Shown piece by piece: positions 8,044 through 16,045 of a DNA stretch of 32,484 bases. Numbering within the stretch: the stretch's first letter is position 1; every line of letters starts with the position of its first letter. The notes under the pieces were generated by a model. It saw only the letters and a program-made list of their open reading frames with translations, was not told where the DNA came from and ran no database searches. Position numbers and translations under genes: made by a program. The stretch covers positions 1 through 32,484 of the forward strand of contig JBGQGB010000006.1 in NCBI GenBank assembly GCA_041497195.1, written 5' to 3'. The DNA comes from Candidatus Doudnabacteria bacterium (GTDB lineage: Bacteria; Patescibacteriota; Doudnabacteria; UBA920; 2-01-FULL-46-14).

Positions 8044-10002
8044 TTATTTACTTATTGTGACAGTGGCTTCGCTGCCCTGGTTCTTTGGCACTATTACTAT
8101 GCTCAAATATTCCGTTCCTTTTTGTTCGGAAAGTCCTTTCAATTCCGGTGAATCTGTTTCATTTGTTTGTTGCCAGTTGTTTTTTTGAGAATATGCTTTG
8201 TATTGGTCCAGCACCTGGGCGGGAGTCAGCCCGGAGGTAAAAATAGTTGTATATTGAGTGATTTTGTTCTCAGTTATGATATAACTTTGGCTGATCACCG
8301 CGTTCTGATCTAGAATCAGCTCTTTGGGAAATTCTGAGACCAATTGTCCAGAGGGGGCGTAGAATATAGGCTGACCGGTACTGGTCATCGAACTCGTATT
8401 TGTTTTCGACGTTTGATTGTAATCGACCGCGCCTTGCGGCTCCTCGATCTTGACTGATTTGTTTAGATTGGAAAAATTGATTTTGAGAGTAAGGGTCGCA
8501 CTGAAAGGAATATCGGTGAGTGAATAGGCTGTTTGTGTCGAGTTCCCGACAGGGCTGCCGAGGTTTCTTATGTCTTCTGGGGTGGTTTCTACACGGCCGG
8601 CTTTGAGCGAGGCGTTGCTTAAGTCCTGCCCAAGGCAAAAATCAATACTGTAAGATGTCCCGTTGTTGAGTTGCGTATAAGAGTAATAGTTATCAGTGGT
8701 GCCGCAGTTGCCGTCAGCCGGTATGGGCGCATGCGGAATCACAGCCATAATACTCGAAAATTTTGTGGGATTGCCGTCATTTGGATCAGGTAGTCCGTCT
8801 ATGGCTATTGGATAGCGGCCATTGGCATTGAAAAAAAGTTCCAGTGCAGTCTGCATTTGCCGGACATCTGAAATACGCTTTGCGTCTCGGGCTTTGGGGA
8901 AGGCGGATTTTTGAGCCGCCGCGATTGCTCCATAAACAGAGGGGAAATTGCTCTCGACGATGATTTGGTGAATCTCATGATCTGATTTTCCTATCCAGAC
9001 CTCGACTTTGCGCATGTCGAGTTTGTCAACCAAACTTTTGACATCCAAGCGGCTCTCCAATGCGATTCCGATGATTTTATTGACTTCATCGACATACAGA
9101 CTGAGCTGGGTTTTGTCCAGGGAAGCTTGGTAGTGCCAGGCATCCTGGTTGTCTATTTTTTCGCTTCCTAAAAGTTTGCCTGGTTTGACGAGAGTAACTT
9201 TTGTAAATGCATCAAGGATTTGTTGGATTTGCGCCTGGCTGAGTTTGGCCAGAGGGTTATTGAGGTTTGGGCTAGCGAGATCCAGTTTGACCCAATCCGC
9301 TTTTGCGGTATTAGCGTTTGCGTTACTGAGAAAATAACCGAGAATATTGTTGTTAAGTTTGTAGTAAACATTGTTTGCTATTTTCCGGCTCTCTCCGTCA
9401 ATGCTCAGTTTGATGCTTCCCAGTTGAATCGTACCGGTCGAAGTCAGGGAGTAATCGAGAGTTGGACTGGATGACGTTTGAAAATCTCCTTCAGCACTGG
9501 CTGATAAAGCCAGATCTCCCAGTCCGGCCAGGGTCGTGCCCAGGCCGCTAGTTTGGTTTGTTAGATCCGGGGGCAGCGGGTCTGAGTAATTTGCTTGGAT
9601 TTTGACATGGCCGCTTTTGATAGCGCGCGCATTGCTCGCAGTCTGTGGCCAGATCCGGTCAGGATTGTTGGCGTATTGGGCATAAGCGAGATACCCGCCT
9701 CCTCCTAAGATTATGATTGCCGCGCCAATGAAGATAAACAATTTAACCCTGCTCCATAGCGATGGCGGAGCGGGCATTTCCTCGCCTTCGGGAACTGCGG
9801 CTGGGTCGGCAGAAGGATTGAGTATTTCCAGTGGCCCCAGTTCACTGCTGCGAACTCTGGGCATCAGTGTTCTTTGCGTTTCCGTCCAGGCTTGGGAAAT
9901 CAAATTTTCATCCCAGCCGGCTTGCTTGAGCTGGGCCTTGATGTCCTGTTCGGATAGGCCAAGGTCCAAGCATTTCCGAATATATTCCAGGATTTCGTTC
10001 AC
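8044..10002 (-). CDS. Membrane-anchored exported protein: LppX/LprAFG-like beta fold with an inserted pilin/GspG-like domain
   Basis: N-terminal helical domain (GLSEQDIKAQLKQAGW), TM helix, GSEKIDNQDAWHY...VWIGKSD...FSNLNKSVKIEEP, and internal KARDAKRISDVRQMQTALELFFNANGRYP. Confidence 0.65.
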   Translation of the reverse strand: MNEILEYIRKCLDLGLSEQDIKAQLKQAGWDENLISQAWTETQRTLMPRVRSSELGPLEILNPSADPAAVPEGEEMPAPPSLWSRVKLFIFIGAAIIILGGGGYLAYAQYANNPDRIWPQTASNARAIKSGHVKIQANYSDPLPPDLTNQTSGLGTTLAGLGDLALSASAEGDFQTSSSPTLDYSLTSTGTIQLGSIKLSIDGESRKIANNVYYKLNNNILGYFLSNANANTAKADWVKLDLASPNLNNPLAKLSQAQIQQILDAFTKVTLVKPGKLLGSEKIDNQDAWHYQASLDKTQLSLYVDEVNKIIGIALESRLDVKSLVDKLDMRKVEVWIGKSDHEIHQIIVESNFPSVYGAIAAAQKSAFPKARDAKRISDVRQMQTALELFFNANGRYPIAIDGLPDPNDGNPTKFSSIMAVIPHAPIPADGNCGTTDNYYSYTQLNNGTSYSIDFCLGQDLSNASLKAGRVETTPEDIRNLGSPVGNSTQTAYSLTDIPFSATLTLKINFSNLNKSVKIEEPQGAVDYNQTSKTNTSSMTSTGQPIFYAPSGQLVSEFPKELILDQNAVISQSYIITENKITQYTTIFTSGLTPAQVLDQYKAYSQKNNWQQTNETDSPELKGLSEQKGTEYLSIVIVPKNQGSEATVTISK

Positions 10003-10040
10003 TTTTTTGTTTCTTTAGCAAGACGGATTTTTACCATTTA

Positions 10041-10069
10041 ATTATACCATAAAAAAATATGATTGACAA
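10041..10069 (-). promoter_or_regulatory. sigma70 promoter for the 8044-10002 gene
   Basis: On the minus strand, TTGTCA-17 bp-TATAAT with a TG extension. Confidence 0.7.
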
Positions 10070-10240
10070 TGGTTTTTTTATGTATCCGAATAATTCAGTA
10101 GCGATCAAATCATCAGGAAATCGTGATGGAAAATCAAAACACCGGGCTTTGGGCCAGTTGTGCTCTTCTCCGTTTTTTTTGGCGCAAAAAACATTATCCT
10201 CGCGCCCTGGGGAGGTGTATTATCGAGAGTTTTCAGAGTC

Positions 10241-10269
10241 TTGACAAAGTTTTTTTGAGAAACTAAAAT
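10241..10269 (+). promoter_or_regulatory. rRNA promoter P1
   Basis: TTGACA-17 bp-TAAAAT. Confidence 0.7.
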
Positions 10270-10289
10270 GGCCTATATAGCTTAAATAT

Positions 10290-10318
10290 TTGACATCCCA
10301 GTGGATTAGCGGTATAAT
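10290..10318 (+). promoter_or_regulatory. rRNA promoter P2 (perfect consensus)
   Basis: TTGACA-17 bp-TATAAT. Confidence 0.85.
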
Positions 10319-10364
10319 TGGGGTGAAAGTAGCTAAGCTTGAGGCTTAAGTCTAAGCCAAAAAT

Positions 10365-10409
10365 ATGAAAAACCAGACATTATCGTTAACAAAAACCAGG
10401 CGGTTATGA
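10365..10409 (+). CDS. Putative 14-aa leader peptide MKNQTLSLTKTRRL in the rRNA leader
   Basis: First ATG after P2, in A-rich context. Its 3' end (CAGGCGGT) is complementary to the 5' arm of the downstream terminator. Confidence 0.4.
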   Translation: MKNQTLSLTKTRRL

Positions 10410-10446
10410 GACACGCTTAGTATTTCTGTATCTTGTCGTAACCTGC

Positions 10447-10467
10447 ACCGCCTGTGAGGCGGTTTTT
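10447..10467 (+). terminator. Intrinsic terminator-like hairpin within the rRNA leader
   Basis: ACCGCCT-gtg-AGGCGGT followed by TTTT. Confidence 0.6.
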
Positions 10468-11482
10468 CATTCCTCTTTAAACCTAAAAATTTAGTCATTA
10501 TTCTCAGTTTGTTTATAGAATTCACCGCTTGAGGCAGCCTAATTTTATAGAAGGGTTTTGCCAAATTTTAAAGCGGTGGACTGTGTAAGTAAACGGTTTG
10601 CAGCTTAACAATTGAATATCGTCCATCAAATTTTGATCAGTCAATTTTGATGGATGGGAAAATGAGTGAAACCTCGTTAGTCCGCTCTATAGGCGGATTG
10701 ACGGGAGTCATTCCGTTAGTATCTCGTCTCAAGTGAGATGGCTAACGGGGTGAACGGCAAATTCTGTTTCGTTATTTGGGAAAAGACGAAACAAAACCTA
10801 GTAATTATAAATTGCTAGTCAATGTAGAGCCTCGACATCATAACCTTCGGGTTTGGTGAAGAGGTAAATCTAAAACACCGATAAGGGTATACGGTGGATG
10901 CCTTGGCACAAGAAGCCGACGAAGGACGCAGGAGCCGGCGATACGCCTCGGGGAGCTGGCAAACAAGCTTTGATCCGGGGATGTCCGAATGGGGAAACCT
11001 TTCTGAGTAAACCTCAGAAGTACTCATACGTGGTGTATGGGTAACGACAACCATGCGAAGTGAAACATCTCAGTAGCATGAGGAAAAGAAAACAATTGCT
11101 AGCTTTTTAATTCAGAGCCGCACCATCGGGCTTTGAATTTAAGAAGCTAGTGCATTCCCTCAGTAGTGGCGAGCGAACGGGGAACAGCCAAAACTTCATT
11201 TATGTTGGGAGTTGAGTTTCGATTTATCGAGACTTAACCTCCTTTAAAGGTTACAGCCGTTGTAAATGTGGTGTTGCAAGACCAGTCTATTCGCCCTGTA
11301 AAGGCGAAGGGAAAAATCTTTGAGCTGTCTAGTAGAACACGCCTGGAAAGGCGGACCATAGAAGGTGATAGTCCTGTACGCGAAAGACCTCAATTGTTTC
11401 CTGATTGGTTCTTAAGTACTACGAGACACGTGAAAGCTCGTAGGAAACTGGGTCGACTGCGATCTAAGGCTAAATACTTCTT

Positions 11483-11524
<42 letters not shown>

Positions 11525-13629
11525 CAGCCCGGTGAGGGCGATGAAATAGTATCTGAAACCGTATATCTACAACGAGCGGAAGCGCGCAAGCGCAACCGCG
11601 TGCCTATTGAAGAATGACCCAACGAGTTATCTTACATCTTTTGTCTAAGGGCCCTATACAAGCCTGAAGGCGAAGGGAAACCGAGTGTTAAAAGCGCGTT
11701 CTCTGATTTTTCGGAAAGATATGGCCGCAAGGCTGTTCTTTCCGAAATCTCTGAGAGGAAGGTGTGGGATAGACCCGAAACCCGGCGAGCTACTCATGGC
11801 CAGGATGAACCCAAGGTAACACTTGGGGGAGGTCCGAACTCACTATTGTTGCAAAAATAGGGGATGAGCTGTGAGTAGGGGAGAAATTCCAATCGAGCTG
11901 GGTGATAGCTGGTTCTCCTCGAAATAGCTTTAGGGCTAGCCTTGTGGCTTTGATTGCAAGAGGTAGAGCACTGGATGAGTAGCGGGAGAGCAATCTCTCG
12001 CATTCAACCAAACTCCGAATACTTGTAATTTAGCCCAGGAGTCAGACCGTGAGGTCTAAGCTTCATGTGTCCAAAGGGAAACAGCCCAGATCGTCGTTTA
12101 AGGTCCCTAAATCAAAGCTATAGTGTAAAGGATGTTTTTGTCCCCAGACAGGTAGGAGGTTGGCTCAGAGGTAGCCATCCTTTAAAGAGTGTGTAACAAC
12201 TCACTACTCGAGTCTTCAACTTCGGTTGAAGGGGGACAGGGGCGCCGACAATGTATTGGGGCTAAGCTTTGTACCGAAAACACGAATTGTTCCGGTTTTA
12301 CATCGGAACAGTGGTAGAGGAGCATTGTCAACAGCAGCGAAGTCTGACCCGCGAGGGCAGGTGGAGCGTTGACAAGAGAGAATGTTGGGATAAGTAATAT
12401 TTATGCAGGTGAGAATCCTGCACGCCGAAAGTCCAAGGTTTCCTGGGCAATGATTGTCAGCCCAGGGTTAGCCGGGCCTAACCGCGCTGCCCAAAGGTGG
12501 CGTGGGATGGAAAAGACGGTTGATATTCCGTCGCTACCGCCAAATTATCTCAGGAGTGACGCATCATAGTAGTGCAAGCGTATTCTGACTTATTGCGTTC
12601 CTAAATTTGTAGGAGTGATTTCCAGGTAAATCCGGAAATCGTCTCCCCGACTTGTCGGGGAGGACTTCGAGAGTTTGGGGAAATCTCGCAAGGGAAATTT
12701 GCATGATCCAAGGTGCCCAGAAAAACTTCGGAGTCATGTTTGGTGGTATCCGTACCGCAAACCGACACAGGTGGACGAGGAGAGAATCCTCAGGCGAACG
12801 AGCCAATACTCGTTCAGGAACTCGGCAAAAAAGCGGCCGTACCTTCGGTATAAGGCCTGCCCCGAATTTCTATTAGCAATAATAGTTTTATCGGGGTCGA
12901 AGCGACTGACCCCTCCCGACTGTTTATCAAAAACACAGGTCCCTGCTAAAGCTAAAAGCTGATGTATAGGGGCTGATGCCTGGCCAGTGTCAGAAGGTTA
13001 AAACGACTGGGGCAACCTGGTCGTCCAAGCCCTGATGAACGCCGGCGGTAACTATAACCGTCCTATGGTAGCGAAATTCCTTGTCGTGTAAGTTACGACC
13101 CGCACGAATGGCATAACGAGTGGGGGACTGTCTTAACGAGTAGCTCGATGAATTTGCATTATCGGTAAAGATGCCGTTTTCCCGCAGCAAGACGGAAAGA
13201 CCCTATGAAGCTTTACTATAGGGTGTCATTGGCTCAAGATTTATTTTGCTTAGCATAGGTGGGAGACTTTGAAGCTCTGCTTCCGGGCGGAGTGGAGTCG
13301 AAATATGAAATACCACCCTGAATGAATTTTGAATCTAACTGGTGATTTACCATCACTAGGACAGTGGCTCCTGGGTAGTTTAACTGGGGCGGTTGCCTCC
13401 TAAAAGGTAACGGAGGCGTTTAAAGGTCAGCTAGGCGCGGATGGAAATCGCGCTGGTCGTGCAAAGGCACAAGCTGGCTTAACTGCAAGGCTGGCAAGCC
13501 GCGCAGATGCGAAAGCAGAACTTAGTGATCCGACCATCCATAGTGGTATGGTGGAAGCTCAACGGATAAAAGCTACTCTAGGGATAACAGGCTGATCCGG
13601 TCCAAGAGTCCACATCGACGACCGGGTTT

Positions 13630-13662
<33 letters not shown>

Positions 13663-13666
13663 GTGA

Positions 13667-13703
<37 letters not shown>

Positions 13704-13729
13704 TGGCACGCGAGCTGGGTTCAAAACGT

Positions 13730-14446
13730 AAATTACATTGCGTCTTAGCACAGAAATGTGCTATGTTAATCTGACTAAAATCGGTGAAACCCTACTGGAT
13801 TTCCAAACTTTCCAGAGGGCAATACCGAGGGAAGATTAGATTGTGACCAACGAAGAAAAGTCATACATTGCAGGATTTTTTGATGGTGATGGATGCATTA
13901 TGGCTCAACTGGTAAAGCACAAAGATTATGTCTTTGGGTTTCAAATCAGAGTGAGCATAGTGTTCTATCAAAAGAACAGCCATCAAGAAATTCTTTCTTG
14001 GCTTAAAACTATTCTGAAACTAGGCTATATTCGTCAGCGTAATGACGGCATGACCGAGTACACGATAGTTGGGTTGCAAGAAGTAAAGGAAACTTTAGAA
14101 CTTCTCTATCCATTTCTTCGTTTAAAGAAAGTGTTGGCAAAAGAAGTTATTCAACTGATAAATTCTTACCCAACAAAAATGACAGTGAAAGATCTTGTTC
14201 GCTTGAGTAAAATAGTTGATAAGACAGCAAAGTTTAACTATTCGAAAAAGCGAACCAATACATCGGAAACAGTCATCACTTTCTTGAAAAGTCAAAATCT
14301 TTTCCCCGTAGAGACTTAAAGTTAGGACAAGAACTAACTTTGGATTCTCCGAGATTTGGAGAATAATACGTCAGCCCCTAATTCAGATCCCTTTCTGAAG
14401 AGGGTGAAGATATAGTCCATGCCATTAGTAATAATGGAATTACATG
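13730..14446 (+). mobile_element. Group I intron (IA3-like) at 23S position L2593
   Basis: Interrupts GGGTTCAAAACGT^CGTGAGACAGTTTG. The 5' exon ends in U and the intron ends in G. P/Q/R/S-like elements are AAATCGGTGAAAC, AATACCGAG, CCGTAGAGACT and AAGATATAGTCC, with two extra hairpins after P7. Confidence 0.93.
13843..14319 (+). CDS. Single-motif LAGLIDADG homing endonuclease, I-CreI/I-MsoI family
   Basis: YIAGFFDGDGCIMAQL...FQIRVSIVFYQK; intron-encoded at L2593; C-terminus overlaps the ribozyme core (PVET). Confidence 0.92.
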   Translation: MTNEEKSYIAGFFDGDGCIMAQLVKHKDYVFGFQIRVSIVFYQKNSHQEILSWLKTILKLGYIRQRNDGMTEYTIVGLQEVKETLELLYPFLRLKKVLAKEVIQLINSYPTKMTVKDLVRLSKIVDKTAKFNYSKKRTNTSETVITFLKSQNLFPVET

Positions 14447-14883
14447 CGTGAGACAGTTTGGTCCTTATCTGCTGTGGGCGTACGAAACTTGAGAGGGCTC
14501 TCCGATAGTACGAGAGGACCTCGGAGAATGGGGCTCTGGTGTACCGGTTGTGGTGTCAACTGCATTGCCGGGTAGCTAAACCCCAGTTAGGATAAGCGCT
14601 GAAGGCATATAAGCGCGAAGCCGTCCTCAAGATTAGGTTTCGTTGTTCTGCCGCAAGGCAGGATGAAAGGTTCGGGGAAGACTACCCCGCATATAGGCTG
14701 CAGGTGTAAGAGCCGTAAGGCTTTCAGCCGAGCAGTACTAATCAACCGAAAGTGTTTTAGACTCCTTCGACAGTCTTTGGCTTGCCAAAGACTGTCGAAG
14801 GTTTGACTAGCAATTTGTAATTGGTAGTCCGCCAGTTGGCGGATGTTTTCACTCATTTTCATTGGTAAGTTTCAGTCCTTTTC

Positions 14884-14998
14884 TAGGGTGACATTTGCGA
14901 CGTTGTACCACCCTGCTCCATTCCGAACCAGGTCGTGAAAGACGTCAGCGCCGATGATACTACCGCTAATGCGGTTGGGAAAGTAGGTCGTTGCCCGC
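14884..14998 (+). rRNA. rrf: 5S rRNA
   Basis: CCATTCCGAACC...GTGAAA...GCGCCGATGATAC...GGGAAAGTAGGTCG; terminal helix GGGTGAC/GTTGCCC; end positions are approximate. Confidence 0.92.
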
Positions 14999-15115
14999 TT
15001 TTTCACCCCAAAAATCTGTGGATTTTTGGGGAACCCCGCCCGCTCTTCGCAGTTGGGATACCCATTATGGGTCAATACCGACTGCGAAGAGCGGACTCTG
15101 GAAAAGGACTGAAAG

Positions 15116-15154
15116 AAAGAACCGTCAGCCGCGGCTGACGGTTCTTTTGTTTTT
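15116..15154 (+). terminator. rRNA operon terminator
   Basis: AAAGAACCGTCAGCC-gc-GGCTGACGGTTCTTT then TGTTTTT. Confidence 0.85.
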
Positions 15155-15214
15155 GTCTCTTGACAATAATACAAGATATGATAAAGTATGATTTAGCTCA
15201 GCTAAAGTAGCAAT

Positions 15215-16045
15215 ATGGCAAAAAAACGCTTAACTATCACGCTTGAGGAAGACATTCTCAAGCGGCTCGACAATACCATTGATCATTCCAAGATCCGCAA
15301 TCGCTCCCACGCGATTGAGTTTTTACTGACCTCCTCGCTCAAGCCGAAATCCACCAAAGTTTTGATTCTAGCCGGCGGCGAGGGAGTGAAATTTCGGCCG
15401 TTGACGAATGAGCTGCCAAAATCTCTGATCCCAATTGCGGGCAAGCCGCTCTTGGAACACACGCTGTTGTCTTTGCGGCAGCTGGGCCTTAGTGACATCT
15501 ACATCTCAGTCGGGCATTTGGGCCAAAAGATCAAGGATTATTTTGGTGACGGCCGCAATTTCGGGTTGCATATCACATATCTGGAACAAGCCCGGGCTAA
15601 GCCCGGCACAGCCCAGCCTTTGCTGGAGGCCAAAAAATATTTTGCCACTGAAACCTTTCTTTTGATTTACGCGGACGTGCTCACCAAGTTGAATTTTTTG
15701 GATTTGTTGGATTTCCAAAGTTCGTCCCGCGGGTTGGCTACCATGGCCTTGGTCTCGGTGGAAAAACCATCTATGTGGGGAGTGGCCACTATTCAGGGCA
15801 ACCGGATAATTGATTTTGTGGAAAAACCGAAAGTGAAAACCAAGTCCCATCTCATCAACGCCGGGGTATACGTTTTCAACCCTGAAGTGTTCAAATACAT
15901 TTCGTCAGACTCAGCGCGTCTGGAAAAAGATCTATTCCCGCGCTTGGCTCAAGAGGGCAAACTCAGCGCCTATCCTTTTGAATCAGAGTGGTATGATGTT
16001 TCGACCCCCGAGGTTTACTCGGAAGTTTTGAAAAATTGGAAATAG
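15215..16045 (+). CDS. Ribbon-helix-helix (CopG/NikR-like) fused to a sugar-phosphate nucleotidyltransferase
   Basis: KKRLTITLEEDILKRLD...NRSHAIEFLL is RHH; LILAGGEG...PKSLIPIAGKP, FVEKP, INAGVYVF and WYDV are NTP-transferase motifs. Confidence 0.85.
   Translation: MAKKRLTITLEEDILKRLDNTIDHSKIRNRSHAIEFLLTSSLKPKSTKVLILAGGEGVKFRPLTNELPKSLIPIAGKPLLEHTLLSLRQLGLSDIYISVGHLGQKIKDYFGDGRNFGLHITYLEQARAKPGTAQPLLEAKKYFATETFLLIYADVLTKLNFLDLLDFQSSSRGLATMALVSVEKPSMWGVATIQGNRIIDFVEKPKVKTKSHLINAGVYVFNPEVFKYISSDSARLEKDLFPRLAQEGKLSAYPFESEWYDVSTPEVYSEVLKNWK

Follow-up and report, generated by a model that had tools for sequence, protein, structure and literature searches.

The 23S–5S ribosomal RNA (rRNA) operon of an ultra-small Candidatus Doudnabacteria bacterium (assembly GCA_041497195.1, here genome G000; 966 kb in 13 contigs, 98.65% complete, 49% G+C) is preceded by a leader in which a 14-codon open reading frame (ORF) ends on one strand of an RNA structure that competes with an intrinsic-terminator hairpin. 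The stretch analyzed here, called the window throughout, comprises 32,484 nucleotides (nt) of contig C6 of this genome (JBGQGB010000006.1). On balance, we lean towards reading this element, which begins the 23S–5S transcript, as a transcription attenuator of the ribosome-mediated (leader-peptide) kind, an arrangement suggesting that working ribosomes directly throttle new rRNA synthesis.

Anatomy of the 23S–5S leader

The rRNA promoters of the window are tandem (Table 1). An earlier note, made from the letters of the sequence alone, had pointed out a perfect promoter at 10290–10318; it stands there with a score of 12/12, is the top promoter-like site within positions 9000–16000, and has a −10 element that ends 46 nt before the ATG of the leader ORF. 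A second, P1-like promoter (10241–10269), which the note did not mention, lies upstream of it, and tandem promoters are also visible by eye in several leaders of the same family. The note had seen no other consensus promoter ahead of the 23S gene, and the best plus-strand site in the interval between terminator and 23S gene indeed scores only 9/12 (10492–10521). No conserved promoter was seen in that interval in this window or in the family leaders; a separate start downstream of 10467 was what the note had named as speaking against its own interpretation.

The 14-codon ORF was recovered as described, at 10365–10409, and so was the terminator hairpin with its T run (10447–10467), which consists of ACCGCCT (10447–10453), the loop GTG, AGGCGGT (10457–10463) and the T run proper (10463–10467). 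The proposed 8-bp alternative pairing is exact, CAGGCGGT (10397–10404) within the last ORF codons being complementary to ACCGCCTG (10447–10454), which includes the terminator 5′ arm. An inner helix, GGTTAT..GACA pairing with TGTCGTAACC (10402–10413/10434–10443), had been thought to hold the two partners together; it is present, but it cannot form fully at the same time as the 8-bp pairing because G10402–T10404 are common to both. The window sequence folded by itself does not stand out from shuffled versions (z = −1.35, not significant), and the case for a non-chance structure therefore rests on conservation in relatives.

Table 1. Features of the 23S–5S operon and its leader in the window
Feature	Coordinates	Strand	Details
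Upstream tandem promoter, P1-like	10241..10269	+	TTGACA-17-TAAAAT; score 11/12
P2-like promoter	10290..10318	+	TTGACA 10290-10295, 17-nt spacer, TATAAT 10313-10318; score 12/12
Leader ORF, 14 codons and stop	10365..10409	+	MKNQTLSLTKTRRL; ATG 10365, TGA 10407-10409
Antiterminator 5′ strand, within last ORF codons	10397..10407	+	CAGGCGGTTAT; aligns to helix P1 of model R2
Inner hairpin inside antiterminator	10410..10437	+	GACA...TGTC and small apical stem; predicted fold
Antiterminator 3′ strand	10438..10454	+	GTAACC...ACCGCCTG; 10447-10453 doubles as terminator 5′ arm
Intrinsic-terminator hairpin and T run	10447..10467	+	ACCGCCT-GTG-AGGCGGT; 7 pairs, 5 G-C
BoxA-like sequence peculiar to genome G000	10471..10482	+	TCCTCTTTAAAC; 9/11 positions of GYTCTTTAANA
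Conserved stem with variable insert, just 5′ of conserved boxA-like site	10523..10578	+	CACCGCTT...AAGCGGTG; by eye, family leaders
Conserved boxA-like motif, 3′ of terminator	10600..10618	+	GCAGCTTAACAATTGAATA; 7/7 family 23S leaders
23S rRNA gene, first gene under proposed control	10876..13788	+	RF02541, 2072 bits
5S rRNA gene	14884..14999	+	RF00001, 66 bits
Strong terminator-like hairpin 3′ of 5S	15115..15148	+	15 pairs, then T-rich tail

Conservation of the frame and of the alternative pairing

Leader homology was found in six of eight same-family genomes, and in all six the parts follow the same order: promoter, ATG mini-frame, a copy of AGGCGGTT in the frame end, (A)CCGCCT-loop-AGGCGGT and T run. 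A covariance model (R1) built from the seven family sequences, i.e., the window plus these six, matched 56 of 146 genomes of the order; a second model (R2), built from 41 matches with the antiterminator structure, found exactly one copy per genome in 100 of the 146; a class-level draw returned the same 146 genomes. Only 100 of the 146 assemblies contain the 5′ end of the 23S gene, and 88 of those have an R2 match. For 11 of the other 12, a search of the DNA upstream of the 23S gene with filters off returned a correctly oriented best R2 match (E = 0.0011–0.62); seven of these weak variants were inspected and show a promoter, an ATG frame of 7–16 codons, a shorter antiterminator and a terminator, and the remaining four are known only as cmsearch rows. 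None of five element-negative genomes examined contains a 23S 5′ end. Judged from these sequences, the element is close to universal in the order wherever the 23S locus is assembled, and it provides a strong single-copy marker of the 23S leader there. The comparison of leaders across relatives that the earlier note had proposed thus found both the ORF and the alternative pairing conserved across the order.

Outside the order, R2 matched four of 144 sampled genomes of the phylum, each time 114–236 nt before a 23S gene. A crude script that looked for a terminator, an upstream duplicate and an ATG frame before 23S genes across the phylum was insensitive (three of five known in-order copies were missed) and is used only as a hint; six of 25 23S leaders outside the order were positive, compared with 0 of 30 reverse complements, 0 of 150 shuffles and 6 of 1920 1-kb windows of genome G000. 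On this hint, versions of the module that differ in sequence seem to exist in other Patescibacteria as well. The same crude pattern, an ATG mini-frame ending on a copy of the 3′ arm of a terminator, also occurs at five more sites in G000 (C1:310633-310760(−), C1:133144-133256(−), C1:10647-10819(−), C2:8123-8188(+) and C2:210347-210471(+)), which may be chance or further attenuators. A 24-nt match of 10472–10495 in another genome (G010) was dismissed as chance, since it lies inside a coding-like region.

The position of the element relative to the 23S gene is equally regular. It lies on the 23S strand, 114–915 nt upstream (median 427), in 57 of 59 aligned copies, the other two being at contig ends, and in every one of 58 copies the ATG follows the end of a promoter scoring at least 10/12 by 25–81 nt (median 37). 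The sole 16S gene of G000 is on a separate contig with its own promoter, and no 16S gene was present in any of the 23S loci fetched from relatives. As the sequences stand, the 23S–5S operon is unlinked to 16S, and the leader module is therefore the first part transcribed from the rRNA promoters. A strong promoter and a terminator would also frame a short transcription unit of its own, and the module could accordingly be a separate small gene. The promoters would then drive an abundant RNA of ~140 nt ending at the terminator, and/or a 14-residue peptide, with a function in trans, and 23S transcription would depend on leak-through or on a promoter that has escaped recognition; for the Sinorhizobium trp leader, trans-acting attenuator RNAs and leader peptides have reportedly been described. 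We regard this as improbable: the peptide is poorly conserved and its C-terminus shifts with the frame, the unit precedes 23S on the same strand in 57 of 59 copies and is followed by no conserved promoter, and a competing antiterminator would have no role in it.

The earlier note had offered a different alternative, in which the hairpin at 10447–10463 is a boxB analogue and TCCTCTTTAAAC the boxA of a Nus-factor loading site. The latter agrees at nine of 11 positions, including the critical C4, with GYTCTTTAANA, the gamma-proteobacterial boxA consensus as given in 10.1101/091223, and NusB is present in G000. However, TCCTCTTTAAAC occurs in only one of seven family leaders, within an insert peculiar to G000; the hairpin carries a U run and is confronted by a competing upstream strand in 59 of 59 copies; and the conserved boxA-like motif, which resembles one in the 16S leader of G000, is found 130 nt further on. 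This alternative is therefore very unlikely. The conserved site lies 3′ of the terminator, so that a polymerase arriving at the terminator would still be without the protection of a Nus complex. Beyond it, ~55 nt before the 23S 5′ end, a hairpin CTAGTAATT-ATA-AATTGCTAG followed by TCAA (10798–10822, plus strand) is kept in all seven family leaders with stem base changes, e.g., AGCAGT...ACTGCT, and is probably part of the pre-23S processing structure.

Within the element, all but one of the 59 copies have an ATG in the aligned position. The frames that it opens have 10 (3 copies), 13 (1), 14 (40), 15 (3) or 16 (11) codons, and their stops begin between −3 and +15 nt relative to the start of the antiterminator 5′ strand. 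From the ATG up to this strand, 57 of 58 copies are free of stops in the ATG frame, compared with 5 and 33 in the other two frames; a first set of 40 sequences had already shown this. Shuffled ORF interiors remain open at a mean probability of 0.46; of 26 representatives whose interiors are less than 60% alike, 25 have an open frame, and multiplying their shuffle probabilities gives ~10^-8.7, a rough figure because relatives are not independent. In two genomes of one genus (G007 and G008), −1 and +1 indels on either side of AGGCGG restore the frame. Conservation of the encoded peptide is loose (M, then K or N as residue 3 and L as residues 6 and 8), and its C-terminus varies by family, with three frames reading one RNA block (RFM, RRL and GGSMN, each directly before the stop); the distances from ATG to strand, 29/32, 33 and 34 nt depending on the family, give these three reading frames. 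All three Leu codons of the window ORF are TTA, a rare codon in this genome (~7% of Leu codons in long ORFs, a rough figure); the TTA triplets are kept as nucleotides in A+T-richer relatives and therefore need not be a rare-codon device. What is kept, on the evidence of these alignments, is an open frame ending on the antiterminator strand and not a peptide, which suits a sensor of ribosome passage.

The residues K-T-R in the window peptide had also raised the possibility of a drug-sensing arrest peptide, at whose +X+ motif macrolide-bound ribosomes would stall and alter read-through. The motif is indeed present in this peptide, but +X+ near the C-terminus was counted in only ~19 of 58 peptides (an approximate manual count), and its R is the CGG of the RNA-constrained strand, which makes the motif a by-product. 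A stall at that place would moreover hide the antiterminator and reduce 23S synthesis, whereas a useful response would do the reverse, and what follows downstream is rRNA, with no resistance gene. Such a function is scarcely probable.

The antiterminator was tested for covariation on an alignment of 59 sequences (15 pairs in three helices, 500 shuffles, slid controls). Its cells are paired in 75.1% of cases compared with 65.1% in shuffles, and 86 cells are changed on both sides compared with 38.8; neither value was reached in any of the 500 shuffles. The covariation score is 0.271, against 0.136 for the shuffles and 0.06–0.11 for the slid controls. In helix P2, the equivalent of the inner hairpin, both-side changes occur in all six pairs across the order. 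Clear examples of change in the switch are GCGGCA/TGCCGC in place of GCGGTT/AACCGC and one genome (L085) in which all three strands have changed together. In the 59 copies, the terminator core CCGC/GCGG is invariant or near-invariant, pairing holds in 87% of cells, every copy has a following U run, and an upstream strand competing with the terminator hairpin is found in all 59. The Rho RNA-binding domain (PF07497) was not found in the 98.65% complete G000, and intrinsic terminators therefore matter in this organism.

Energies and distances describe the switch further. The median energy is −18.8 kcal/mol for the antiterminator hairpin and −8.5 for the terminator, and the minimum-energy fold of the naked RNA is the antiterminator in 42 of the 59 copies, the terminator in 10 and ambiguous in seven. 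When the RNA was masked from the ORF to ~14 nt beyond the stop, a comparison that the earlier note had proposed, the fold of lowest energy was the terminator in the examples shown; the naked RNA of the window already prefers the terminator. The stop is 27–47 nt from the terminator arm and 47–68 nt from the end of the U run, and the ATG is 89–104 nt from the latter. The antiterminator, mutually exclusive with the terminator, has its 5′ strand within the expected footprint of a ribosome on the last codons.

A well-supported terminator/antiterminator pair could also belong to an RNA-only switch, in which a protein (e.g., NusA, NusG, a ribosomal protein or an assembly factor), a small ligand or folding kinetics decides the outcome and the ATG frame is untranslated or irrelevant. 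Weak or absent Shine-Dalgarno (SD) sequences, a block around the stop that is conserved as nucleotides whatever the frame, and conserved unpaired bases between the two antiterminator helices are all consistent with such a switch. However, it leaves unexplained why the ATG is kept at one place, why the ATG frame alone is free of stops, why the stop stays so close to the antiterminator strand and why a pair of indels restores the frame; nor does the element match any Rfam family, even at E ≤ 1. We consider a switch of this kind unlikely.

Proposed ribosome-mediated attenuation of 23S–5S transcription

Our preference for a leader-peptide attenuator draws on what the sequences show directly: how the leader is built and how widely it is conserved, a frame kept open, covariation in the antiterminator and a fixed geometry. 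The earlier note had recognized this geometry in a single sequence, and the central part of its proposal is supported: the 3′ end of the leader ORF is the antiterminator strand of a switch before 23S–5S, across the order. The feedback on rRNA output that the note derived from it stays at the level of inference. Transcription would start at two tandem strong promoters and bring the ATG out ~40 nt into the RNA. Without a ribosome, or with a late one, the strand at the ORF end would pair with ACCGCCTG as soon as the latter is made and sequester the terminator 5′ arm; RNA polymerase would then continue to the boxA-like site, 23S and 5S. A ribosome at or near the stop would instead cover the antiterminator strand, the terminator and its U run would form ~50–60 nt downstream, and the transcript would end.

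On this mechanism, active, initiation-competent ribosomes would lower 23S–5S output and poor translation capacity would raise it, so that ribosome supply would set rRNA output. The sensed quantity would be general translating capacity, because no codon run points to one amino acid, and the weakness of the initiation site would leave initiation sensitive to how many ribosomes are available. The element could in addition keep 50S and 30S production in balance, since a full 70S ribosome would be needed on the leader and the 16S operon lacks the module. Extending this, it is conceivable, and we hold it tentatively, that ribosome homeostasis is hard-wired into the rRNA transcript: each pre-23S would offer a 14-codon test message whose timely translation by a 70S ribosome aborts the transcript, and spare capacity, specifically spare 50S, would feed back on 23S–5S synthesis. 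Translation of the frame, termination at the hairpin, the sign of the control and the physiological signal are all parts that we infer from sequence.

Several observations weigh against translation-dependent attenuation. Some of what is conserved in the ORF is RNA sequence: the nucleotides around the stop are kept, and the peptide C-terminus is dictated by the RNA because this conserved block is read in three frames. None of the 58 peptides has a run of residues for a sensed amino acid or any repeated residue. No SD sequence precedes the ATG in the window, and among the 58 copies a core SD occurs in seven and a loose one in 25; SD use appears low throughout G000, however, with motifs before 16% of 866 long ORFs compared with a background of 8% (rough values), and the 16S 3′ end retains CCUCC, leaving the anti-SD intact. 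The covariation was counted on an alignment fitted to the tested structure, which favours that structure, and the terminator core is without variation and hence adds no covariation. Contigs from four public RNA runs (24 runs were listed, the best of which contained 5–11% of sampled words) cover only the conserved 23S from ~10870 on; the leader is uncovered, and these runs speak neither for nor against its expression. The 16S leader of G000 is without this ORF module. With the predicted sign, poor translation would lead to more rRNA synthesis, contrary to the logic of stringent control, and a RelA/SpoT homologue is present in G000.

The equilibrium fold is a further difficulty. Naked RNA favours the inner hairpin together with the terminator both here and in five of six family relatives, with a terminator probability of at least 0.96 in each. 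In these folding models, the inner helix can shift register and so free the terminator arm. Read-through without a ribosome must therefore rest, in these leaders, on co-transcriptional folding in which the antiterminator forms first. Read-through at the classical trp attenuator likewise depends on an antiterminator that forms first during transcription.

The 16S leader has structures of its own. At G000:C5:23714-23782 (minus strand; L093/L140), a terminator-like ACACGC-loop-GCGTGT with T6 lies upstream of a boxA-like GTTCTTTGGCAACTGAATAG; the 5′ arm of the hairpin comes directly after a conserved SD-like AGGGGG and an ATG, and an upstream copy of CGTGTGT could pair with that arm. The ATG frame runs through the hairpin and its length is not conserved (5 to >60 codons). 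This arrangement is found in eight of eight family genomes, and a family-level model (R3) matches 13 of the 146 order genomes; it may be a second attenuator, wired differently.

Other features of the locus concern its borders. The hairpin at 15115–15148 is the likely end of the 23S–5S operon. The 1.1-kb spacer that separates the 5S gene from the end of the 23S match contains a 158-amino-acid ORF with a LAGLIDADG endonuclease domain (13843–14319, plus strand; E = 7.9e-12). The divergent neighbour of the rRNA promoters is a 652-amino-acid ORF (8044–10002, minus strand) with no Pfam match, which has a promoter-like site of its own, TTGTCA-17-TATAAT with a TG extension (10069–10041). RNAduplex comparisons of the leader with the 23S trailer, and of the element with the 23S–5S spacer, returned long permissive duplexes and no usable signal.

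Relation to known systems

Leader-peptide attenuation is textbook knowledge for amino-acid operons, and we did not find it described for rRNA genes, which are untranslated. Full-text literature searches, which do not reach subscription-only papers and supplements, found no paper on an attenuator, or on a leader that is translated, ahead of rRNA genes, whether in these bacteria or in others. At the gathering score, Rfam 15 matches in the window only rRNA and transfer RNA genes, and it has no match at E ≤ 1 in 10200–10900. If the proposed mechanism is true, translation capacity sets rRNA transcription through a cis element, a simple way to match rRNA synthesis to need in an organism with one rRNA copy, unlinked operons and minimal regulation, and the feedback could also balance the unlinked 23S–5S and 16S operons. 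The reading is testable, given that Saccharibacteria are described as cultivable on hosts, naturally competent and genetically tractable (PMC10633639).

A link between translating capacity and rRNA synthesis has a long history. In the 1980s, Nomura and co-workers reportedly advanced a ribosome feedback model of rRNA control in E. coli, of which the present element would be a direct cis-acting form: the concept in both is that translating capacity feeds back negatively on rRNA synthesis. The effect in E. coli has since been attributed to initiation from the P1 promoters of rrn operons (nucleoside triphosphates, guanosine tetraphosphate/DksA), for which no cis-acting translated leader is known, whereas the cis element here follows the promoter and would act by termination. 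With the boxB-boxA-boxC Nus leader of rrn operons, the module shares its place in an rRNA leader, a boxA-like motif and the presence of NusB; it differs in that its hairpin, followed by a U run and opposed by a competing strand, precedes the conserved boxA-like site and would be a terminator not yet open to suppression by the Nus complex. The arrest-peptide leaders of erm, cat and msr also couple a short leader ORF to alternative RNA structures, but here there is no conserved arrest motif and no resistance gene downstream.

At the ampC and pyrBI attenuators of E. coli, it is the closeness or frequency of ribosome engagement with the leader that decides the outcome, and ampC has been proposed to report growth rate and ribosome supply. 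The element proposed here would resemble them in that ribosome engagement, rather than one amino acid, decides. Engagement there prevents the terminator from forming, so that read-through rises with ribosome number, and the targets are protein genes, whereas the opposite sign is predicted for the 23S leader.

Close parallels are the leader-peptide transcription attenuators of amino-acid operons, such as trp, his, leu, thr, pheA and ilv in E. coli. Like these, the 23S leader has a short frame (translated in the amino-acid operons), an intrinsic terminator and an overlapping antiterminator; its control would be kinetic and exerted during transcription, and a ribosome at the leader stop is proposed to cover the antiterminator strand and let the terminator form, as it does there. 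Unlike these, it precedes rRNA genes and not the protein genes of a sensed pathway, it contains no codon run for a sensed amino acid, and its SD is weak or absent. It also lacks an upstream "1:2" pause or anti-antiterminator segment, and an untranslated leader should therefore read through rather than super-attenuate. The type of mechanism proposed is thus that of a classical leader-peptide attenuator; what is new is that rRNA is the target, that regulatory codons are lacking and that the design has two states.

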